IMG/VR virus record: IMGVR_UViG_3300045988_051055
Coordinates: 1-40,772 of that record
Strand: one strand, 5' to 3'
DNA: 40,772 nucleotides
From: a virus
This document shows positions 4,282 to 33,123 of this stretch, in pieces. The notes under the pieces are model-generated. The model was not told where the DNA came from, searched no databases, and worked only from the letters and a program-made list of their open reading frames with translations. Each line of letters begins with the position of its first letter. Within the stretch, counting starts at the first letter, position 1. Position numbers and translations under genes: made by a program.

Positions 4282-6758
4282 AAAGTGCTCCCTCCGATCG
4301 CAGGCCCGCGGCGCTGCCGCTCCACTTCGATCTGCGGGTAGATCGTCCGGACAAACTGCGCCATTGTGGTGTTGCCCTTGAAATTCACGGTCACGTCGCC
4401 GCCGAAGTCGGATTCCGCCAAAGCCTGCTTGAACATCTGCAGCATCGTAGCCGCAGGAGTCTCAATGTTCATGCCGCTCCTCTGGTCACCGAGCACAGCC
4501 AGAAACTCGTTGTTGGGCGAGATCACTGCGCCATTTGCAAGGTACGGATAGGCATCCATCAAGCTCTGCGGCGCAGCCGCGTATGTACGCGCTCCGCCGC
4601 CGGTGAAGGTTTCCAGAACGGCAGTGCCGAAACCAGAAAAGGCTCTTCCCAAGAAATCGGAAAGCGCATTTGCCGCCTCCGAGATCAAGTCGATAATGCT
4701 TGAAAGCGTATCGCCCAACCACTCGATCGCGGAGCCAAGGGCTTGTATCGCATCGATCAGCACACTTCCCAAAAACTCGGCGATCGGTTTGACGATCTCC
4801 CATATGGCGCTGAAAAGGTCAAACACTGACTGGAGGATGGGCGTAAGCGCTTTGAAGACAGAGCCGAGCAAATTGACCGCTGCGGGAGCCGCCTCTTCGA
4901 TCGTCCACTTGGCAAGAGGAAGCAGGATGTTCTCCCACGCCCAAGACAGCCCGCCGAGCAAAACGTCGACCAAAGGTTCAAACACTTCCAGCAGTGAGCG
5001 GAATGCGGTCACGATCGGCTCAAGGTTCAACCCCTGTGCCCAATTCAATGTTGCCGCGCTGATCTCGTTGAAGAAGTCTAAGATATCCTGCACGACATCA
5101 AGGATCACATTCCAGATCGCGACGCCGTTCTTGTTGGCTTCCCACGTCTCGCGCAAGCGATTTGCCAGCTCGCCCACCGTGTTGTTGACGTTTGCAATGA
5201 TACTCAGCAGCGTTTCCATGATCTGCACGCCGCTGCCGTCGTTCCACGCCTCACGAAATGCCTCTCCAATGCTGCGGAGTAGGTCCATGACCGACGTGAG
5301 TCGAAACGCAATGCTCTGGATCACCGCTTCGCCCGCGCCGGAGTTCCACGCCGTCGTAAACGCCGCTGCAATGTCCCCGATGATGCCGAGGATAGTCTGC
5401 AGGAGAAGCTGGAACGAATTGAGAACGGACAAGCCGGCGCCGCTCGTCCACACGTTTTTGAACGTCGCCCACAGAGAGGACGCGAGGTCTTTGAGTTTCT
5501 GGAACGCGCTTTTGGCCGCGTTGATGGTTGCCGTGCCGTACTGTTCCCAGCTTTTCTTGAATGGCTCCCAGAACGAAGAGAGACCGCCCGTGTCAAAGAC
5601 TGTAGAGAAGTCCGTATCAAACTTTGGCGCAGTCTTGTTTTCTTCTTTGCTTACCTTTTCGATCGTGTCGAACGAGGCCAGAAACTTCTCGGCATTTTTT
5701 GCCGCCTTGCCGGTCGCCTCGGTCGCGTCGGCCTGCTCGTAAAGGGCTTTGGCATTTTCCTGCGCCTGCTTGGCGGTCGTTCCAAAGATGGAGGCTACAA
5801 ACTGCGCCATCTGGGCCGTAAGCTGCTCCACCTTTTCGAGCATCGCCGTCAGAGCCGGTAAAACCGCCTCGTAGATCGGCTGGAACGCCGTGAGGAGATT
5901 GCTCTTGATGCCGCTGAGCGCCTTTGCAAAGTCGTCGTTAGCTGTCAGGTATTGCCCCATCTGCTGGGTCAGCTTGCGCAGAGCCTTGCTGATGACGTTG
6001 AACACCAACGCGCCAAGCACGATGGACTTTAAGCGTCTGCCGAATTTCTGCATGGAGCGGCTCGCCGTGTTCATGTCTTTGCTGCTCTTGCCGATGCAGC
6101 GCAGCTTGGCCAGAAGTGCAGCCGCGGCAAGCTTGGACTTGGTCAGTCCTGCCGCAATGCCAGTCTTAAGCTTTCCGCCGATGTTGCCGAGCACCGCACG
6201 GAGCTGCTCAAACTTGCTCGTGTAGCCGCCAGCCAAGTCGTTAATTGCCGCCCGGGTACCGCTTGCCTCCGCCTGCAGGCGTTCGAGCTTGCTCTCGGCA
6301 AGGGTAATGTCCTCCGCCAGATGCCGAGCCTCTGTCGTTGCTTCGGGGTTTCCTTTTAAGTCTGCGAGCCTTTGCTTTAAACCGTCTGCTTTTGCGTCGG
6401 CCTCTGCCAGTTTTTGTGCCAGCGTGTCGATCTGAGTTTGCGTCTGCGTATCTACTGAGCCGTTGGCCGCTTTGCTGATGTCCGCATATTCGCGGAGCTT
6501 CTGGTATTCCTGATCGAGTTTTTCCGCTTCTGCTTCGGCTTTTTTCAGCTCATCGGCCAGTTTTTTCGCGCCTTTTGGTTCCGCGTTTTCCGCAGTCAGC
6601 TCCGCATATTTTTCTTTTAGCCGATCGACCGCCGTCGCCTGCTTGTCTACGCTTTCCGTTTGGCGGCGCAGCTTGGCATTGAGCTGGTCGAGCTTCTTTT
6701 TCGCTTTTTCGTCACTGACGATGGCTTCGATGCGAATGCTGCCGTCAGCTTGTGCCAT
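4278..6758 (-). CDS. Tape measure protein (826 aa)
   Basis: Largest tail gene. Coiled-coil N-terminus, repeated W..SG.G helical motifs (TFKNVWTSGAG, TTAWNSGAG, REAWNDGSG) and canonical position. Confidence 0.9.
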   Translation of the reverse strand: MAQADGSIRIEAIVSDEKAKKKLDQLNAKLRRQTESVDKQATAVDRLKEKYAELTAENAEPKGAKKLADELKKAEAEAEKLDQEYQKLREYADISKAANGSVDTQTQTQIDTLAQKLAEADAKADGLKQRLADLKGNPEATTEARHLAEDITLAESKLERLQAEASGTRAAINDLAGGYTSKFEQLRAVLGNIGGKLKTGIAAGLTKSKLAAAALLAKLRCIGKSSKDMNTASRSMQKFGRRLKSIVLGALVFNVISKALRKLTQQMGQYLTANDDFAKALSGIKSNLLTAFQPIYEAVLPALTAMLEKVEQLTAQMAQFVASIFGTTAKQAQENAKALYEQADATEATGKAAKNAEKFLASFDTIEKVSKEENKTAPKFDTDFSTVFDTGGLSSFWEPFKKSWEQYGTATINAAKSAFQKLKDLASSLWATFKNVWTSGAGLSVLNSFQLLLQTILGIIGDIAAAFTTAWNSGAGEAVIQSIAFRLTSVMDLLRSIGEAFREAWNDGSGVQIMETLLSIIANVNNTVGELANRLRETWEANKNGVAIWNVILDVVQDILDFFNEISAATLNWAQGLNLEPIVTAFRSLLEVFEPLVDVLLGGLSWAWENILLPLAKWTIEEAAPAAVNLLGSVFKALTPILQSVFDLFSAIWEIVKPIAEFLGSVLIDAIQALGSAIEWLGDTLSSIIDLISEAANALSDFLGRAFSGFGTAVLETFTGGGARTYAAAPQSLMDAYPYLANGAVISPNNEFLAVLGDQRSGMNIETPAATMLQMFKQALAESDFGGDVTVNFKGNTTMAQFVRTIYPQIEVERQRRGPAIGGSTL

Positions 6759-6778
6759 AAGGGTTCACCCCTTTCCTG

Positions 6779-7324
6779 TTACTTGATCTGTGCCCAGAAT
6801 TCGTCAATGGCTTCCTGCTCTTCCTTGGTAAATTTAACCGGCGGAGTGAGCTTCTTTTTCAGCCGCTCGTACTGTGCTTTCTGCTTGGGCTTCATGCCGC
6901 TCGTGTCCGTCCCGCGGATCTGGATCGCATGAGACAGCGCGGAATCTTCATCCACGCATCCCAAAAGCTCCATAAATTCAAACCAGTGCATTTTCTGCTT
7001 GTGGATGTCGATGCCAAAGCTCTTTCGAAACGAGGAGCAAATGCGGCCGGCATCGAAGTCAAACCAAATGCATTGCTTTGCCTTGTCCGGTGCGTCCTGC
7101 GCCTCCGCTCCGCAACGCATAAACCACCCGAGGCCCTCCACCGCCGTCTCCAGCGGCGGAAGGCCCCGTCCGAAGAGGAGCGAAATAGCCGTGAACACAC
7201 GGTCGTTTTCGCTCAAGTCTTCATCTTGCAGGCAAAGTGCGATCTGAATGCCAATCCGATAATCCGGCCGGATCAAAAAGCCGTTGTAGTCCTCTGGAAG
7301 ATGGTCTAACAAAATGTCAAACAC
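6779..7324 (-). CDS. Tail assembly protein, Listeria A118 Gp15-like (181 aa), GTG start
   Basis: Lies directly upstream of the TMP. GTG at 7324 follows GGAGGGGA. Family assignment is from memory of Gp15-type proteins. Confidence 0.6.
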   Translation of the reverse strand: MFDILLDHLPEDYNGFLIRPDYRIGIQIALCLQDEDLSENDRVFTAISLLFGRGLPPLETAVEGLGWFMRCGAEAQDAPDKAKQCIWFDFDAGRICSSFRKSFGIDIHKQKMHWFEFMELLGCVDEDSALSHAIQIRGTDTSGMKPKQKAQYERLKKKLTPPVKFTKEEQEAIDEFWAQIK

Positions 7325-7712
7325 TCGATCCCCTCCGGCCGGCGCTATACTTGCTTATTGCTTCCGCACGGTCTTTTTTGTACTCTTCTAAATAGGGAGT
7401 CAGAAGCGTAAAGAATTCGAGGAACATCTCAACGCCCGGAAGAATATTGCCAAAAACCTTGTGGCAAGTCTCCGCGCCGAAAAGGCCGTCTACCCGCTCC
7501 ATCATGTACTTGTCAAACGCGACGATCACATCCATCGATCCGAGGATATCGTTGCTGTCCGTCTGGATCTCTGCCGCCTTTTTCTGCGCCTCATCGACCA
7601 AGGCATAGAAATTACGGAGGAATTGGTCATCGCCGACCGGAAGGAGGATGTATTCGCCCTCGTCGTTTACTTCAATGCGCTTTACGCCGTTCAGCCGAAT
7701 CACATTTGCCAT
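7317..7712 (-). CDS. Tail assembly chaperone-position protein (131 aa)
   Basis: Lies between the major tail protein and the Gp15-like gene. GGAGGGAAA RBS. Confidence 0.6.
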   Translation of the reverse strand: MANVIRLNGVKRIEVNDEGEYILLPVGDDQFLRNFYALVDEAQKKAAEIQTDSNDILGSMDVIVAFDKYMMERVDGLFGAETCHKVFGNILPGVEMFLEFFTLLTPYLEEYKKDRAEAISKYSAGRRGSSV

Positions 7713-18833: not shown

Positions 18834-19140
18834 CGCTGTCACCTCCGTCCATCTTCGCGCCGCAGTTGGGGCAGTAATCCGACAACAATTCAAACCCATT
18901 TACAAGCACTTGCGCCGCATCGTGGCAAACAGAGCACTCGTGCCTGTCTGGTGAGGGAACAAAGTTTCCTGCTTCTTCCCACGAAATCCACCGCCCATGC
19001 ACCACGGGCGCAACGTCGGCAACGGGCGCAGAGCAAACCTTTTCCATAAAAGCACAGTTCGTAGCGCCGCAAAACGCTATCCCGCACGTTTCATAGCAAA
19101 TGCTGTCCAGCAACGCCTCCCGCTTAATGTATTCAGCCAT
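18820..19140 (-). CDS. Cys-rich zinc-ribbon protein, paralogue set member 2 (106 aa)
   Basis: ATG at 19140 follows GGAGGTG. Contains APVVHGRW and ends CPNCGAKMDGGDSDAAD. Confidence 0.6.
   Translation of the reverse strand: MAEYIKREALLDSICYETCGIAFCGATNCAFMEKVCSAPVADVAPVVHGRWISWEEAGNFVPSPDRHECSVCHDAAQVLVNGFELLSDYCPNCGAKMDGGDSDAAD
18841..18878. repeat. 38-nt direct repeat copy A at a gene junction
   Basis: acctccgtccatCttcgcGccgcagttggggcagtaa; 36/38 identical to 19148..19185. Confidence 0.9.
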
Positions 19141-19414
19141 TGTCCGCACCTCCGTCCATTTTCGCCCCGCAGTTGGGGCAGTAACCAAAATGGTTGATTA
19201 CCTGTGCGTAGTATTCCTTGCCGCAATTCGAGCATTTCGCAAAGCCCTGCCGCCAATTACCGTTCTCGTCAAAACACGGCTCGAAGCACCCATGCACCAC
19301 CGGCGCAGCATAGCCAGCCAACCGTGCCAATGCCCTTTCGCAGATCGGGCATAGGGACTCACGTTTATTTACTGCCGCAAACCACGACCCGCACGCTTTA
19401 CAATCAGGCATCAT
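19133..19414 (-). CDS. Cys-rich zinc-ribbon protein, paralogue set member 1 (93 aa)
   Basis: ATGATG at 19414. Begins MMPDCKACG, contains APVVHGCF and ends CPNCGAKMDGGADNG. Confidence 0.6.
   Translation of the reverse strand: MMPDCKACGSWFAAVNKRESLCPICERALARLAGYAAPVVHGCFEPCFDENGNWRQGFAKCSNCGKEYYAQVINHFGYCPNCGAKMDGGADNG
19148..19185. repeat. 38-nt direct repeat copy B at a gene junction
   Basis: acctccgtccatTttcgcCccgcagttggggcagtaa. Encodes CPNCGAKMDGG plus the RBS of the next gene. Confidence 0.9.
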
Positions 19415-19691
19415 TCTCCATCCTTTCCCGCAGCCGCTGGACCTTGTGTGCCCGCTGCTCCGCCACCGCGTCCTCGACCTCAAACTCGATCGCCATCTGG
19501 TCGAGCATGATCCCGACGTCGGCGATCTCCTCGGCAATGTTGGCAAGCGTGTCGCCGTCCACGCGCCCGCGCAGAAACTTGCACAGCACGTCCTGCAGCT
19601 CGGCCATCTCCTCAAAGGCCATCGTGATCTGCGCCTGCGCACCGTAGCGGCTGAGCGCCGTGCAGAAGGTTCTGCGTTCCATGTCAGTCAT
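19404..19691 (-). CDS. MazG-like nucleotide pyrophosphohydrolase (95 aa)
   Basis: AFEEMAELQDVLCKFLRGR...IAEEIADVGIMLDQM shows the EExxE/D-type helical MazG motifs. GGAGGCG RBS. Confidence 0.7.
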   Translation of the reverse strand: MTDMERRTFCTALSRYGAQAQITMAFEEMAELQDVLCKFLRGRVDGDTLANIAEEIADVGIMLDQMAIEFEVEDAVAEQRAHKVQRLRERMENDA

Positions 19692-20217
19692 CTTTCATCG
19701 CCTCCAATGCTTTCTCCGCCTCCTCGCGGGTGAGGAATACGGAGTGCCCAACACGATCCAAATCGCATAAAGTAAAGATACCCCTCTTAATTTCCGGTTC
19801 GCTTTCATCTGGGTAAACCGCAATCGGATAGTGGATATAATATGTCGCGGTTCCAACCTCGCACGGCAGCACCACCAGCCGACCGTCCTTGTCTGCCTCG
19901 GCCAGCTCGCGCAGGCGGACATCGTCATCTGTCTGCGCGAGCAACTTGTCGAGCCGTTCGATGATGCTGTCAGCGTGTTTGTTGATGGCGTATTCTGCTT
20001 CTGGCGATATTTCCCGCACACTCGCCAAATCGTTAATTTCTTCCGGCGTCAGCCCCGTGTCCTCGTAGGCGGCGAGGCGGCTCCACGCCGCTTCTTCCCA
20101 CTTGCAATTCATGGCGCAGTTCCCGCCAACTTCGAGGCATTCGGGGCCGCGAAAATGTGTGCAGCAGATACCGTTTTCGTGCGATGTTTGCTTGCTATGT
20201 TTTGTCAGGCGTTGCAT
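19684..20217 (-). CDS. Hypothetical Cys-rich protein (177 aa)
   Basis: ATG at 20217 follows AGGAGGTGGAG, with TGATG coupling. Confidence 0.55.
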   Translation of the reverse strand: MQRLTKHSKQTSHENGICCTHFRGPECLEVGGNCAMNCKWEEAAWSRLAAYEDTGLTPEEINDLASVREISPEAEYAINKHADSIIERLDKLLAQTDDDVRLRELAEADKDGRLVVLPCEVGTATYYIHYPIAVYPDESEPEIKRGIFTLCDLDRVGHSVFLTREEAEKALEAMKDD

Positions 20218-20564
20218 CACTCCACCTCCTGCATCCAAAACTCGCGGCGGCAAATATCACAGCCTCTTCCAGTCGGGCAATGCCCGCGTAACGTTGTATC
20301 AACAAGGCATGGGTCTAAAGCAACGTTATGTGTGTTCGTATATATTGGCGCATTTGGAAACTGCTCCAGAAACACGCTCTGCCGCGTCTTGCGCGGGTGC
20401 GCAGCAGACCAGTCCTCGACGATGGTCACAATGTTGTCATCATCAACCATTCCTTCCAATGCACTACACTCGCAGTCTTTTGCGGGGCATTGATAGCAGT
20501 CCCCGGCATGGTGGTAAAAGCGGCACATTCGGTCGCGTTCTTTGATAAACTTCACAGCGTCCAT
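20217..20564 (-). CDS. Hypothetical Cys-rich protein (115 aa)
   Basis: ATG at 20564 lies 7 nt after GGAGGG, with TGATG coupling to the upstream gene. Confidence 0.55.
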   Translation of the reverse strand: MDAVKFIKERDRMCRFYHHAGDCYQCPAKDCECSALEGMVDDDNIVTIVEDWSAAHPRKTRQSVFLEQFPNAPIYTNTHNVALDPCLVDTTLRGHCPTGRGCDICRREFWMQEVE

Positions 20565-20797
20565 CACATATCCCTCCATTTACACCCATCACAGGCGCCC
20601 CCGTGGGCCAGCGTGTAGTTTCCGCACTTTAGGCACAGTTCGTTCCGCAGTGCGTCAATTTCTTTCGTCTGCGCCTCGATCCGGTCAGCGGCTTCCGCCA
20701 GGTCTTTTTCCAGTCCTCCCAGCGGCTCCATCATGTCCCCATTTTCCCACCAATCCGCGTGCTCACGCAGCGCATTTACGAGGTTTTGATCTCTCAT
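20564..20797 (-). CDS. Hypothetical protein (77 aa)
   Basis: ATG at 20797 follows GGGGGAGGAA, with an ATGA overlap with the methylase stop. Confidence 0.5.
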   Translation of the reverse strand: MRDQNLVNALREHADWWENGDMMEPLGGLEKDLAEAADRIEAQTKEIDALRNELCLKCGNYTLAHGGACDGCKWRDM

Positions 20798-22050
20798 AAT
20801 TCCTCCCCCAATCTCCAATCATCGTCCCGCACCTGAAACGCATCACCCAGCTGGATGGTCTCTTGGAAATTGTGCTGTGTGGTCTGTACGGCGTACTTGT
20901 CGATTTCCGTCGCGTAGTAGGCGGTGATCTTCGCGCCCAGCTTGTCCAGCGCGATATGGCCGCAGCTCATACCGTCGTACATGGAGAGCACTTCAACCGG
21001 CTCCTCCGTCAGCCCCTCAAAGTGGCTCATGATATGCGCGATCACGTCCACCGTCCAGCCGTTGCCCAGCATTTTGTAGGCTTGGCTGTCGCTCACCGGG
21101 AAAACATACTCCTCCGGCACGGTTTGGAGGCGCATACACTCACGGACCGTCAGCTTGCGGATGATGTAGCAGCCGTCCCGCAGTTTGATGGGGTACTCCT
21201 TGCCCTTGATGGTGATACGCCCATCCCGCACCTGATAAATCGGCTTGTCCAGCGTCCCGCAGTATTCGTACATTTCGCAGGATGTCGTCAGGCAGTTGCT
21301 TTTCTCCCGCATGGCGCGGCCCCGTCTGGGCTTGCTCTGCGGCATCGCCATGTCCACGCGCTCCCCCGGGTAAATATCCACATACCCCTGCTTCGTCGCC
21401 TCCCGTACTCGCATGGGAGGAGCGGCTGGCGTTGCATATAGGCCCGTCTTGGCTCCCAGCTCCCCGCCGTTGCCGCAGAGGGTCACACTCTTATCGTCCG
21501 GTGAATAAACACGGTATTGCTGGCTGTCATAGCTCTGGTCCTTGGCGTCGTTCTCAATGGTGTCAATCCTCACCGGCTCTGCCGCCATGAGACGCGAATA
21601 ACTATGTTGCTTCTTGGGATTGTAAACGCCTGCCGATTTATAGTAATGCGCGTCCAGCGTATAGGACTTTTCCCTCCATGCACCGCCCGTCTCCAGAATA
21701 TCCCGCAGCAGGATACCCTTGTCCTCCGGCTGTTCCACACGGACTTGGCTGTATGTGCCGTCCGGGTTCCGTCTTCCCACCCAATACAGGCGCTGGCGGT
21801 TTTGTGCGCTTACCAGCGCGGAGTTGATAAGCACGGGTTCCACGCCCAGCTCCGCCGTGATCTGCGTCCGGATATCGGGCGACATGGATTTGTTGTTCTC
21901 GTAGAGAAAATAGTCCGGTTTGTATTTGTCGCGGGCAATGCGGTAGTTTAGAAATAGCTCCCAGCCGATGCCGCTGGCCTCGGTCTCGCGGTTCTTGGTC
22001 TGCGCGATACTCCAGCGCGTGCAGGGCGAACCGCCGATCAAAAGTTTCAT
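20794..22050 (-). CDS. DNA (cytosine-5) methyltransferase with circularly permuted motif order (418 aa)
   Basis: N-terminus MKLLIGGSPCTRWS (motif IV), YENN (VI), QNRQRLYW (VIII), RKLTVRECMRLQTVPEEY (IX), YKMLGNGWTVDV (X), then C-terminal VLSMYDGMSCGHIAL (I), YYATEID (II), IQLGD (III). AGGAGGAAAGT RBS, with an in-frame TAG just upstream of the ATG. Confidence 0.9.
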   Translation of the reverse strand: MKLLIGGSPCTRWSIAQTKNRETEASGIGWELFLNYRIARDKYKPDYFLYENNKSMSPDIRTQITAELGVEPVLINSALVSAQNRQRLYWVGRRNPDGTYSQVRVEQPEDKGILLRDILETGGAWREKSYTLDAHYYKSAGVYNPKKQHSYSRLMAAEPVRIDTIENDAKDQSYDSQQYRVYSPDDKSVTLCGNGGELGAKTGLYATPAAPPMRVREATKQGYVDIYPGERVDMAMPQSKPRRGRAMREKSNCLTTSCEMYEYCGTLDKPIYQVRDGRITIKGKEYPIKLRDGCYIIRKLTVRECMRLQTVPEEYVFPVSDSQAYKMLGNGWTVDVIAHIMSHFEGLTEEPVEVLSMYDGMSCGHIALDKLGAKITAYYATEIDKYAVQTTQHNFQETIQLGDAFQVRDDDWRLGEEL

Positions 22051-22074
22051 ACTTTCCTCCTAACGGGTATTCTT

Positions 22075-22800
22075 TCATTTCAGCCGGTAGTTTTTGGATC
22101 CGGTAATATTCAGCACGCAGCCTTTCGACCGCTCCGCAATGCGCGAGCCTATCGCCTCGTCCCAGTCCAGCACGCGCGAGATCGTCCACTCGGAGCTGAT
22201 GATTGTCAAAAGGCTTGGCTTGATATACCGCGCATTGAGCAGATCAAACGCAATGTTGCGATCGGCCTCTGTCGCCGTCCCCTTGAGAAAATCGTCGATG
22301 TACAGCACCTTGACGCTTTTCAGCGGGTCGATAGCATCTTGATATGCCTCAGCATCGTTGACCTTTGCTTTGATGGCCGGAATATCCGCCCGCCATTGCA
22401 CATAGCGTACCGGTAATCCGGCATCCATAAGCTTCCCGCACATCGCCGTGCAAAGATGCGTTTTCCCGCTTCCGGGGCTTCCTCCGGCGTAAAACCATCT
22501 TCCGCGCCAATCGGCAAGATAGCGTTCCGCTGCCTCTTTGGCCTGCTTCTGCCACGGCTCAGTCGCGCGGTAGTTCTCCATCGTGCATCTCTGCAAAAGC
22601 TCTTTAAGCCCGCTTCTTTCGATGCGTTGCAGATTCCTTTTGCGGATGGCGCATTCGCATTCCCGGTACTCCGCGTTTCCGTCTGCCGACCTCCGCACGG
22701 TGTATCCAACGCCGCCGCAGAGCGGACACTCGTTAGAGATTGACGGCTCCGGGGACGTTCCATTTTTTCGCATCTCTTCCAGTATCGTGACAATGTCCAT
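22075..22800 (-). CDS. DnaC/IstB-like AAA+ helicase loader (241 aa)
   Basis: N-terminal CPLCGG..C.C zinc motif. Walker A GGSPGSGKTHL, Walker B VLYIDDF. Confidence 0.85.
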   Translation of the reverse strand: MDIVTILEEMRKNGTSPEPSISNECPLCGGVGYTVRRSADGNAEYRECECAIRKRNLQRIERSGLKELLQRCTMENYRATEPWQKQAKEAAERYLADWRGRWFYAGGSPGSGKTHLCTAMCGKLMDAGLPVRYVQWRADIPAIKAKVNDAEAYQDAIDPLKSVKVLYIDDFLKGTATEADRNIAFDLLNARYIKPSLLTIISSEWTISRVLDWDEAIGSRIAERSKGCVLNITGSKNYRLK

Positions 22801-23320
22801 TCATCGCGCCCCCTTTCTTCTCCAGCTCGCGCTTTTCCCATAGCTGGAATTTCTGCTGCCAGTTGTAGACCGGCTTTCCCTCGGTATCCCTCCAACCGGC
22901 GACGGAGTAAAACTCGTAGAACGGCTTGGGGTCAATCAGCCCTCCGCGCAGCTTGGCATATTCGGCAACCTCGCCAAACGTGGGAGCCTTTCGTGAGAGA
23001 GATATAGAGAGAGAACTATCGTTCTCTTTCTCTCCCTCTTTCTCCCCCTCTTTCTCCTTGCCGGTTTGTTCCGATTTGTTTCCACTTTGTTCTTTTTTTG
23101 TTTTCGTTTTATTCTGTCGATTCGCTGCTTTGTTTCGACCACTGTCCAACGTTGGACGAATCAAAGTGAAAACAGCGCATGGAACTCCAGAAAGACATGG
23201 CTCGCTTTCATCAAGCGCATAATCGCAGATTGCCAGCACAACGGCCTTGAAATCTTTTGCGCTGAGCGCTCGCAGCGCGTCCCTGTAACTTCGGTAAAAA
23301 GTGAATTGATTACGCTCCAT
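22733..23320 (-). CDS. Replisome organizer / DnaD-like replication protein (195 aa)
   Basis: ATG at 23320 follows AAGGAG. Begins MERNQFTFYRSYRDAL, has a KEKEGEKEGEKEN linker and lies upstream of the loader. Confidence 0.6.
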   Translation of the reverse strand: MERNQFTFYRSYRDALRALSAKDFKAVVLAICDYALDESEPCLSGVPCAVFTLIRPTLDSGRNKAANRQNKTKTKKEQSGNKSEQTGKEKEGEKEGEKENDSSLSISLSRKAPTFGEVAEYAKLRGGLIDPKPFYEFYSVAGWRDTEGKPVYNWQQKFQLWEKRELEKKGGAMNGHCHDTGRDAKKWNVPGAVNL

Positions 23321-23324
23321 CGCT

Positions 23325-23471
23325 TTACTCCTTCGGCTTTGCCAGCAGGGAAACCGTCGCACCGTATCGCGTCATGACTTCTGCGATATCAGTCGCGTCA
23401 CTCTCGGACACTTCTTGCAAGACAATAATCGCCCTTTCGCGCGGCGAATCGATATGCACCTCGTATCTCAT
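23325..23471 (-). CDS. Micro-ORF (48 aa) MRYEVHIDSPRERAIIVLQEVSESDATDIAEVMTRYGATVSLLAKPKE
   Basis: Hand-translated. ATG at 23471 follows GGAGGTG. Confidence 0.4.
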   Translation of the reverse strand: MRYEVHIDSPRERAIIVLQEVSESDATDIAEVMTRYGATVSLLAKPKE

Positions 23472-31408: not shown

Positions 31409-31828
31409 ATGAACATCCAAGAAGTGTGTAGAATCCGTAAAGAAGAATTGAAACTGACCTATCAGGAAATTTCCGACGTTTCCGGCGTACCGCTGTCCAC
31501 CGTGCAGAATTTCTTTTCCAAGTTTTCAAAAGCTCCGTCCATCTACACCGTCGCGCCGATCTGCAAAGCGCTTGGAATATCGCTTGATGAAGCGTTCGGG
31601 ATTTCCGAACACTTGACGCCGACCGAGAAAACCTTGCAAGCGCGGAATGATGAGCTGGAACGCCATGTTGACGCAAAGGCCGATACCATTGAGATCATGC
31701 GGCGCGGTGTGCGTATCCGCAATGGCGTGATTGCTATATTGTTCCTCATCACCGTTTTTCTCGCTGCGTGGTGCGTGTACATCGATTTCCATTGCATAGA
31801 TTACGGATTTTGGAGGGGGGTTCGATGA
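31409..31828 (+). CDS. XRE HTH protein with coiled coil and C-terminal TM anchor (139 aa)
   Basis: AAGGTGG RBS. HTH segment LTYQEISDVSGVPLSTVQNFFS. TM segment VIAILFLITVFLAAWCVYI. ATGA overlap with the integrase start. Confidence 0.75.
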   Translation: MNIQEVCRIRKEELKLTYQEISDVSGVPLSTVQNFFSKFSKAPSIYTVAPICKALGISLDEAFGISEHLTPTEKTLQARNDELERHVDAKADTIEIMRRGVRIRNGVIAILFLITVFLAAWCVYIDFHCIDYGFWRGVR

Positions 31829-33123
31829 GAGCGGCATTGTATATCCGCGTCTCGAGCGAAGAACAAGCGCGGCATGGCCTGTCCCTGCAAGAGCAGCGGG
31901 ACGCGCTAATGAGATATGCCAAAGCAAATAAAATGTTGGTGGTTGGCATATATGAGGACGCGGGTATATCCGCGCGAAAGCCGTATAAACAGCGTCCTGC
32001 GCTTCTGCGGCTGCTGGATGATTGCAAAGCGGGAAAGGTAGACACGATCCTATTTATCAAGCTTGACCGATGGTTTCGCAATGTCGCAGGGTACTACGAT
32101 GTGCAGACGCAGTTGGACAAATACGGCGTGACATGGCAGGCGACGGAAGAAGACTACGAGACGCGCACCGCGTCCGGGCGCTTAAAGGTAAACATCATGC
32201 TTTCCGTCGCGCAGGACGAGGCCGACCGCACAAGCGAGCGGATCAAATTTATCAACGACGGCAAGCGCGCAAAAGGCCAACCGGCAGGATCAAAAGCCCC
32301 TTTAGGGTATATTGTTAAGGACAGGCAATACCAGATTGATAACGATACGGCAGATGCCGCGCGAGATATGTTTGCGGCGTATATCAGACTGCAAAGCGTG
32401 CTGGGCGTAAAGAAGTATATGCTTGAGACGTGGGGGATTGACAGGGCGTATACCAAATATGTAAACTATTTCCGCAATCGCCTTTATATCGGCGAGGTGT
32501 ACGGCATCGAGAACGCTTGCCCCGCCCTGGTGAGCAAGCAGGATTTTGACATTGTAAATGATATTCTTCGCCAGCGGTCGCAGCGCTGCGCGGGAGTTGA
32601 GACAGATCGCGTTTATCTGTTTTCGGGGTTGCTGCATTGCAAAGAGTGTGGGAAAACGATGCAGTCGGAAACGGCAAAGCATATCTATACCTACTACCGA
32701 TGCCGGACGCGAATGCTTGACAACTCCGCGTGCCAGCATAAAAAGAGGATCCGCGAAGACGCGCTGGAAGATTACTTATTGCATGAGCTTGAAGGGATTG
32801 CCGAGCGAAACAATCGCTATTACAAAAAGGCAGAAAAAAAGCCCACGCAAAGCGCGGACGCGATACGAAAGAAAATGAGCAAGCTGAAAACGCTTTATCT
32901 GAATGATTTGATCGAGTTGGACGAATACAAGCGGGAGTATGCGAGCTTGAAGAAATCCCTTGAAGCGGTAGAGGAAAAGCCGAAGACAAACCTTGATGCG
33001 CTCCGAAATGGGCTTGCTGAATATGACACTTACTCCCGGGAAGAGAAAAAGGAATTTTGGACGCGCTTTATCCGGAGAATTGACGCAGATGACGACGGCG
33101 CGTTTTTTGTAACGCCACGTTAG
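31825..33123 (+). CDS. int: Large serine recombinase (phage integrase) (432 aa)
   Basis: MRAALYIRVSSEEQ catalytic Ser motif, a resolvase domain, then a recombinase/zinc-ribbon region (CKECGKTM...YYRC) and a coiled coil. GGAGGGGGG RBS. Confidence 0.92.
   Translation: MRAALYIRVSSEEQARHGLSLQEQRDALMRYAKANKMLVVGIYEDAGISARKPYKQRPALLRLLDDCKAGKVDTILFIKLDRWFRNVAGYYDVQTQLDKYGVTWQATEEDYETRTASGRLKVNIMLSVAQDEADRTSERIKFINDGKRAKGQPAGSKAPLGYIVKDRQYQIDNDTADAARDMFAAYIRLQSVLGVKKYMLETWGIDRAYTKYVNYFRNRLYIGEVYGIENACPALVSKQDFDIVNDILRQRSQRCAGVETDRVYLFSGLLHCKECGKTMQSETAKHIYTYYRCRTRMLDNSACQHKKRIREDALEDYLLHELEGIAERNNRYYKKAEKKPTQSADAIRKKMSKLKTLYLNDLIELDEYKREYASLKKSLEAVEEKPKTNLDALRNGLAEYDTYSREEKKEFWTRFIRRIDADDDGAFFVTPR

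Follow-up and report, generated by a model that had tools for sequence, protein, structure and literature searches.

Can a DNA cytosine-5 methyltransferase (C5-MTase) occur in nature with a chain that starts at the catalytic motif IV and ends with motifs I to III? The question is raised by a gene of the IMG/VR virus record IMGVR_UViG_3300045988_051055, whose 40,772 nucleotides are referred to here as the window. The gene is a single open reading frame (ORF) at 20794-22050, with an ATG start and 418 residues, and lies on the minus strand, a detail absent from an earlier note on this DNA. That note had read its product as a circularly permuted C5-MTase in the order IV-VI-VIII-target recognition domain (TRD)-IX-X-I-II-III, and mapping onto profiles, Protein Data Bank (PDB) sequences and individual relatives bears this order out. 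Judged from sequence, the gene very probably encodes a complete, most likely active and solitary C5-MTase with a permuted chain, carried by a temperate siphovirus or prophage.

Layout of the permuted chain

The boundaries of the ORF agree with the intact gene described in the earlier note. On the minus strand the start region reads CGT TAG GAG GAA AGT ATG, with a strong Shine-Dalgarno sequence (AGGAGG) in the ribosome-binding site AGGAGGAAAGT (22051-22061) just 5' of the ATG and an in-frame TAG 12 nt 5' of the start. The DnaC-like gene on the 5' side ends with a TGA at 22075-22077, 24 nt short of the methyltransferase start. At the other end, the TGA stop of the methyltransferase and the ATG of the next gene share ATGA (20794-20797).

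All the motif strings quoted in the earlier note are present in the ORF at the relative positions given there, and the full order is IV-V-VI-VII-VIII-TRD-IX-X-I-II-III. Motif IV (MKLLIGGSPCTRWS, aa 1-14, 22009-22050) forms the extreme N-terminus, with Pro9-Cys10 as the catalytic PC dipeptide and beta-strand 4 running from residue 2 in the structural model. Motif VI (FLYENNKS, aa 48-55, 21886-21909; YENN at 50-53) contributes Glu51, the ENV-type catalytic glutamate, and motif VIII (SAQNRQRLYW, aa 81-90, 21781-21810; QNRQRLYW at 83-90) the invariant Q83, R85 and R87. The variable region or TRD, of low model confidence, covers approximately aa 95-285 (21196-21768) and differs in length and content between relatives. 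It is followed by motif IX (RKLTVRECMRLQTVPEEY, aa 298-315, 21106-21159) and motif X (YKMLGNGWTVDVIAHIM, aa 325-341, 21028-21078; the string YKMLGNGWTVDV first noticed covers 325-336), in which G329, N330 and W332 are invariant. A linker (SHFEGLTEEPVE, aa 342-353, 20992-21027) joins the former C-terminal helix of motif X to the former N-terminal strand beta-1. The chain then runs through motif I (VLSMYDGMSCGHIAL, aa 354-368, 20947-20991), the S-adenosylmethionine (AdoMet)-binding loop with invariant S356, M357, D359 and G360, motif II (YYATEID, aa 378-384, 20899-20919) with invariant E382, and motif III (IQLGDAF, aa 399-405, 20836-20856; IQLGD at 399-403), in which G402 and F405 are invariant and D403 nearly so. 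The C-terminal tail (QVRDDDWRLGEEL, aa 406-418, 20794-20835 with the stop codon that overlaps the next ATG) corresponds to the former III-to-IV connecting loop. Motifs I, II, IV, VI, IX and X were placed by PDB alignment and homologue conservation, together with the profile match for motif I and the AlphaFold2 model for motif IV; motifs III and VIII by homologue conservation; the TRD by module mapping, alignments and the model; the linker by alignments of permuted relatives; and the tail by sequence reading and alignments.

Evidence for a break between motifs III and IV

The family profile PF00145 was aligned to aa 2-342 at profile positions 63-320 of 324 with 110 bits (cut-off 22). The N-terminal end of the protein thus lacks a counterpart of the first 62 profile positions. 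By themselves, the C-terminal 70 aa matched PF00145 at positions 2-55 (E 1.3e-3), i.e. the segment read in the earlier note as motifs I-III does match them. When the protein was de-permuted in silico by placing aa 349-418 before aa 1-348, the wrapped match became a single colinear one (5-412 to profile 2-320, 123.7 bits); this is the profile check that had been suggested for the III/IV break. TIGR00675 scored 92.6 bits, under its cut-off of 100.65, as would be expected because the wrapped order breaks the alignment. The significant profile matches were to the C5-MTase families PF00145, TIGR00675 and NF007772; the only other Pfam match was a weak, sub-threshold one to DUF6406 (E 0.038), and no additional domain was found.

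Individual sequences gave the same picture. Among PDB sequences, aa 349-396 aligned to residues 4-52 (motifs I-II) and aa 3-92 to residues 75-169 (motifs IV-VIII) of the DNMT3A/B/C catalytic domains, and aa 270-342 to motifs IX-X of M.HhaI and M.HaeIII. The canonical enzyme of a Bacteroides phage maps with its residues 1-56 to window positions 20997-20830, at the 3' end of the gene, and with its residues 62-77 to 22056-22009, at the 5' end. The protein thus has the family-profile match and the catalytic and cofactor motifs of the PF00145/TIGR00675 dcm superfamily without its linear I-to-X order; topology alone therefore differs, and homology to C5-MTases is not in doubt. Profile matches, pairwise alignments and structural comparison all confirm that the chain is broken between motifs III and IV. 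The protein can accordingly be described as a unit-length circular permutant whose chain begins at beta-4 and which keeps the former III-to-IV loop at its C-terminus.

Structure and conservation

An alignment of 63 permuted homologues, with identity down to 47%, was used both as AlphaFold2 input and for the scoring of conservation. The resulting model has a predicted template modelling score (pTM) of 0.78, and the block means of the predicted local distance difference test (pLDDT) are 74-97 for aa 1-120 and 85-96 for aa 301-410. Strand beta-4 is found at residues 2-7 and the beta1-alphaA-beta2-alphaB-beta3 series at 351-400. In a Foldseek comparison with the PDB, the top 50 matches listed were all C5-MTases (M.HhaI, DNMT3A/B/C, DRM, M.MpeI), the best being M.HhaI, DNMT3A/B/C and DRM with a probability of 1.00. 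The TM-scores were modest, as can be expected of an order-dependent aligner applied to a permuted chain. The model and these matches place the protein in the class I methyltransferase fold with a small TRD domain, of which the TRD is poorly modelled.

The residues P9/C10, E51/N52, Q83/R85/R87, G329/N330/W332, S356/M357/D359/G360, E382 and G402/D403 are invariant or at least 90% conserved among the 63 homologues. The ratio of non-synonymous to synonymous substitutions (dN/dS), calculated on 63 intact ORFs (173 pairs, median dS 0.61), has a median of 0.133 over the complete gene; the median is 0.046 in the IV-VIII block and 0.124 in the I-III module at its new place. Such values point to purifying selection as what keeps the permuted order.

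Distribution of the permuted enzymes

The earlier note had asked whether the permuted form is a clade or a singleton. Three segments of the window enzyme, A (motifs IV-VIII), B (IX-X) and C (I-III), were placed on 270 retrieved proteins: approximately 190 have the permuted A-B-C order and approximately 40 the canonical C-A-B order. The 120 best clusters (90% identity level) are 61-99% identical to the window enzyme, mostly over full length. An exhaustive search of 1.84 billion representatives returned 1,700 matches at E <=1e-30, and the complete representatives at 50% identity comprise 49 permuted and 36 canonical proteins. In species-representative bacterial genomes, 65 of the best 80 loci are colinear A-B-C, chiefly in prophages of Oscillospiraceae and Lachnospiraceae; cultured isolates are among them (Oscillibacter sp. 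1-3, Flavonifractor sp. An92, Anaerotruncus colihominis, Robinsoniella peoriensis, Acutalibacter caecimuris). In IMG/VR, the A-B-C order was found in 71 of the best 80 loci, out of at least 588 matching viral contigs. A 99%-identical protein (P0001) is present on independent contigs of up to 37 kb. The window enzyme is thus no singleton; the permuted enzymes form a large clade, common in viruses of gut bacteria.

Phage nd4 (OR777945.1) is the sole phage of the GenBank set whose enzyme (WRQ08028.1, locus L001, 2998-4674) was found permuted by module mapping; the match is one colinear piece, and the protein, listed as 'hypothetical protein', goes on past motif III for approximately 100 additional aa that are acidic and possibly coiled-coil. 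Among fecal-virome contigs, the tblastn match is one colinear piece in MT836645 and consists of two pieces in MT835543 (74.6% identity). A near-identity DNA search with the 15 kb surrounding the gene revealed no closely related sequenced phage; matches were limited to short patches, some in fecal-virome contigs and others in Faecalibacterium phage FP_Brigit.

Matches by tblastn were also obtained in cultured phages of Bacteroides, Vibrio, Proteus, Roseobacter, Cellulophaga and others. Such matches do not by themselves identify permuted homologues: all three that were module-mapped (Bacteroides BC669P3, Vibrio 1.132.O, Proteus Saba) are canonical. Pieces had been joined non-colinearly by tblastn, and canonical enzymes appeared as matches of 95-99% coverage to a permuted query. 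The order therefore needs a separate check for any permuted query.

Comparison with known enzymes

The closest comparison is with canonical phage C5-MTases (Dmt of Bacteroides BC669P3, NVP1132O_50 of Vibrio 1.132.O, gp7 of Proteus Saba and the metagenomic P0187 and P0152), which are homologous to the window enzyme over all modules. P0187 aligns over aa 3-342, TRD included, with 53% identity. The DNMT3-like signatures LS(L/M)(F/Y)DG, GGSPC, ENN/ENV, SAQNRQR and GNGW are common to both, and the canonical enzymes are likewise encoded by solitary genes in early or replication modules of phages. Their motifs I-III are N-terminal and are connected to motif IV by a loop of approximately 10-20 aa, whereas in the window enzyme this loop is cut and a new X-to-I linker is present. 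As the earlier note had stated, relatives carry LS(L/M)(F/Y)DG(I/M)SCG at the N-terminus; this was seen in the Bacteroides, Vibrio and Proteus phage enzymes.

Natural permuted C5-MTases are known. In a REBASE survey, Albert et al. (2018) counted 27 of them, all cut in the variable region and of the M.BssHII type, while other topologies, active when engineered, 'do not seem to occur' in nature, which was read as selection for pathways that keep both domains intact (PMC5944983). Enzymes of this type start in the variable region and so have IX-X first (PMC5944983). These bacterial enzymes ('Type H': M.BssHII, M.Alw26I, M2.Eco31I, M.Esp3I, M2.BsaI) have motif X before motif I, as does the window enzyme. 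The latter is cut inside the large domain, between beta-3 and beta-4, and with its N-terminus at motif IV and motifs IV-VIII before the TRD it does not belong to the M.BssHII type.

The plant enzyme DRM, of the order VI-X then I-V, is broken behind motif V. This eukaryotic enzyme has N-terminal UBA domains and takes part in RNA-directed DNA methylation. It is a DNMT3-related permuted C5-MTase and also a fold match to the model of the window enzyme. With DRM2 and NtDRM, the window enzyme is colinear only across the X-to-I-II-III junction (aa 319-409 to chain approximately 197-288, E ~1e-6; 197-286 in DRM2), and DRM continues for approximately 67 residues beyond the aligned stretch, consistent with motifs IV-V coming last. 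The DRM order cannot be derived from the order found here without further rearrangement. Nor is the window enzyme a DRM, given its motif IV at residues 1-14 and its lack of an extra domain. That M.BssHII and DRM break elsewhere, as the earlier note stated, holds for the former, cut in the variable region (PMC5944983), and is consistent with the alignment for the latter.

The same class of break is known from the laboratory. The engineered cp122M.MpeI has its new N-terminus just ahead of motif IV, and some lab-evolved M.HaeIII permutants have a III|IV-type break, as summarised in the same source (PMC5944983). Activity is retained in engineered or lab-evolved C5-MTases whose chain starts between motifs III and IV (PMC5944983). 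These permutants are artificial and their sequence family is unrelated to that of the window enzyme.

The linear block order IV-TRD-I is also that which defines the class beta amino-methyltransferases (PMC7544214), i.e. N6-adenine and N4-cytosine enzymes such as M.PvuII, M.RsrI, CcrM and M.EcoGII. These differ in family and chemistry, with a (D/N/S)PP(Y/F/W) motif IV and an exocyclic amino target, whereas the window enzyme has SPC and matches PF00145; neither the motif IV nor the family profile of the N6-adenine/N4-cytosine enzymes was found in it. The likeness is best regarded as a topological analogy only. Only one alternative motif order of 5-methylcytosine (5mC) enzymes is mentioned by Woodcock et al. 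(2020) (PMC7544214). In the literature searched, no natural C5-MTase beginning at motif IV was found described; REBASE was outside this search and an earlier mention is possible. The window enzyme is therefore best placed in a known enzyme family, in an unusual and apparently undescribed natural topology that is widespread in gut prophages.

The finding matters mainly for how protein topology evolves and for how phage methylases are annotated. C5-MTases have been regarded as uniform in topology. An abundant clade, under selection and cut inside the large domain, shows that the variable-region rule for natural permutants reflects sampling and not a structural rule. It is a counterpart, found in nature, to topologies that had come only from engineering or directed evolution, and with it 5mC enzymes gain the IV-TRD-I order of the class beta amino-methyltransferases. 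Colinear profile models under-score permuted proteins; because TIGR00675 stayed below its cut-off here and the Phage nd4 copy went without a functional annotation, methylome and restriction-modification surveys of gut phages may miss or mis-split such enzymes. A chain start at the catalytic loop may also serve split or fusion designs of targeted methyltransferases.

Junctions and origin of the permuted order

All permuted relatives examined, including the most distant (P0205, P0164, P0161, nd4), have in common a start of the type M(K)(K)(L/I)L(I/F)(G/A)G(S/F)PC (MKLLIGGSPC in the window enzyme), a linker of approximately 12 residues after motif X (...DEE(I/L)xVLSMYDG) and an ending GDAFQ(V/L)RxxxW followed by a few residues. 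In the closest canonical relatives the III-to-IV junction reads GDVFxADFTxYKGxDxLxGGSPC; from the comparison of these junctions it follows that the permutant is unit-length. The shared derived start, linker and tail favour a single origin of the permuted order. Canonical relatives reach approximately 66% identity to the window enzyme in the conserved blocks. In a neighbour-joining tree of these blocks based on BLOSUM distance, permuted and canonical groups are interleaved; with Kimura distance one topology change is needed, 68 of 100 bootstrap replicates need at least two, and with very short internal branches the resolution of these trees is poor.

Possible intermediates were identified. P0126 (962 aa) and P0256 (618 aa) contain two complete canonical units head-to-tail in one polypeptide (I-X then I-X; C-A-B-C-A-B), and the second unit of P0126 is the one nearest to the window enzyme. 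At locus L057, two adjacent separate permuted genes (4756-5931 and 6001-7527; 391 and 508 aa) have near-identical catalytic parts and different TRDs, and locus L042 (480-2504) likewise has two adjacent permuted genes with different TRDs. Such pairs suggest that a single prophage has two specificities, and further changes of topology could come about through a tandem array.

Permutation by duplication, fusion and truncation is a model discussed in the literature (PMC5944983; PMC7544214). The permuted order may have arisen within the phage family of DNMT3-like C5-MTases from a canonical ancestor, most likely through two head-to-tail copies that were fused in frame and then lost motifs I-III of the first copy and motifs IV-X of the second. 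In such arrays, a new start and a new stop could carve out a permutant or restore a canonical gene. The duplication and truncation put forward in the earlier note is thus plausible and fits the fused doubles and tandem genes, without being demonstrated by them. A bolder proposal, less likely than not, is that the family keeps every stage as living genes (canonical, tandem, fused doubles and unit-length permutants) and that the order switched more than once, possibly in both directions; if this is true, it would offer a natural system for the stepwise reconstruction of protein topology evolution. With its fused doubles, its tandem genes and canonical relatives of 50-65% identity, the family in any case offers a tractable natural test of the duplication-fusion-truncation model.

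Inteins were also observed in the family. In P0132 and P0162 they split the catalytic PC dipeptide precisely between its two residues (GGSP|CFTKG...IVHN|CTYWS); the +1 splice nucleophile is therefore the catalytic cysteine. The canonical P0132 (1047 aa) has its intein at approximately residues 75-425, with Hint and LAGLIDADG domains, and the permuted P0162 (547 aa) a mini-intein at approximately residues 11-156, with an N-extein of just 10 residues. Alignment offsets indicate the same intein site in P0178, P0179, P0193, P0197 and P0168.

Alternative explanations

In principle the unusual order could reflect an assembly error, a tandem duplication at this locus or a canonical gene that is frameshifted, with its I-III block upstream. 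Each module occurs once in the window; no frame contains a second copy, and DNA repeats related to the gene are absent, which excludes a frameshifted canonical gene or a local duplication; the refuting tandem duplication envisaged in the earlier note is likewise missing from the window. On the 5' side the stop of the DnaC-like gene is reached after 24 nt. With the 99%-identical protein on other contigs, an unchanged order on hundreds of independent contigs, colinearity at 65 genome and 71 viral loci, and purifying selection on 63 intact ORFs, the probability of an artefact or a broken gene is close to nil. As a second alternative, the product might work only as an obligate domain-swapped dimer, with the IV-X core of each chain completed by the I-III module of its partner. 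Dimerisation is characteristic of the class beta enzymes, in which the IV-TRD-I order also occurs (PMC7544214). Of the proteins with solved structures, those nearest in sequence, DNMT3 and DRM, work as dimers or tetramers, and the X-to-I linker is short (~12 aa). The AlphaFold2 monomer, on the other hand, is confident over both halves at the pTM given above, and we consider an obligate swap unlikely.

It is more improbable still that the protein no longer methylates DNA cytosine and is a dead DNA binder or an RNA enzyme like Dnmt2. Its activity is so far predicted from sequence, its motif VI is ENN and not ENV, and the engineered III|IV permutant cp122M.MpeI has only weak activity in vivo (PMC5944983, Table 1), topology alone therefore being no guarantee of full activity. 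Yet the clade as a whole conserves the catalytic Cys, Glu and Arg along with the residues that bind AdoMet, dN/dS is 0.05-0.13, ENN also occurs in canonical-order relatives such as P0187 and P0152, and a large variable TRD, together with tandem paralogues that differ only in the TRD, is typical of sequence-specific DNA methyltransferases. A complete and most likely active permuted C5-MTase is thus the reading retained. Besides the weak activity of cp122M.MpeI, three points weigh against it. The TRD is poorly modelled (pLDDT <50 at aa 123-155, 194-200 and 238-262); no enzymatic or methylome data were found for any member of the clade, the activity, target base and target sequence being inferred; and the proposed route of origin rests on circumstantial intermediates, since the observed fusions are not demonstrable ancestors.

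Genomic context and putative role

The window encodes a large terminase, a portal, a major head protein and a tape measure protein. A large serine recombinase/integrase (31768-33123, plus strand; PHROG 95, E 4e-99) lies on the strand opposite to the structural and replication genes and indicates that the element is a temperate siphovirus or prophage; gut Clostridia are proposed as the prophage host. The methyltransferase sits in the replication module beside the DnaC-like helicase loader (22075-22800, minus strand), a DUF6291 protein, SSB, a MazG-like pyrophosphohydrolase and small ORFs. No cognate nuclease was detected near the gene by PHROGs or Pfam, small unassigned ORFs being not fully excluded. 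The gene thus lacks the adjacent endonuclease of a Type II restriction-modification system, in line with the solitary methylase proposed in the earlier note.

In the mechanism that we propose, the termini have been relocated to a surface loop, and the Rossmann-like fold and the active site would be rebuilt unchanged. By analogy with the family, Cys10 would attack C6 of the flipped-out cytosine, Glu51 and Arg85/Arg87 would activate the base, and AdoMet, held by motifs I-III and X, would donate the methyl group. The methyltransferase would be expressed together with the replication module and would methylate the phage DNA at a sequence set by the variable TRD, conferring protection from host restriction. 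The role is most likely that of an orphan protective methylase with a fast-changing TRD that would set its specificity; among characterised enzymes, none was identified whose TRD is related.

Two small Cys-rich ORFs lie downstream of the methylase on the minus strand (19133-19642 and 20217-20579), with CxxC pairs suggestive of zinc ribbons. No family could be assigned to either, the former having only a faint HypA-like match. On the other side, the DUF6291 ORF (22733-23362, minus strand) as listed overlaps the start of the ORF of the DnaC-like loader by 68 nt.

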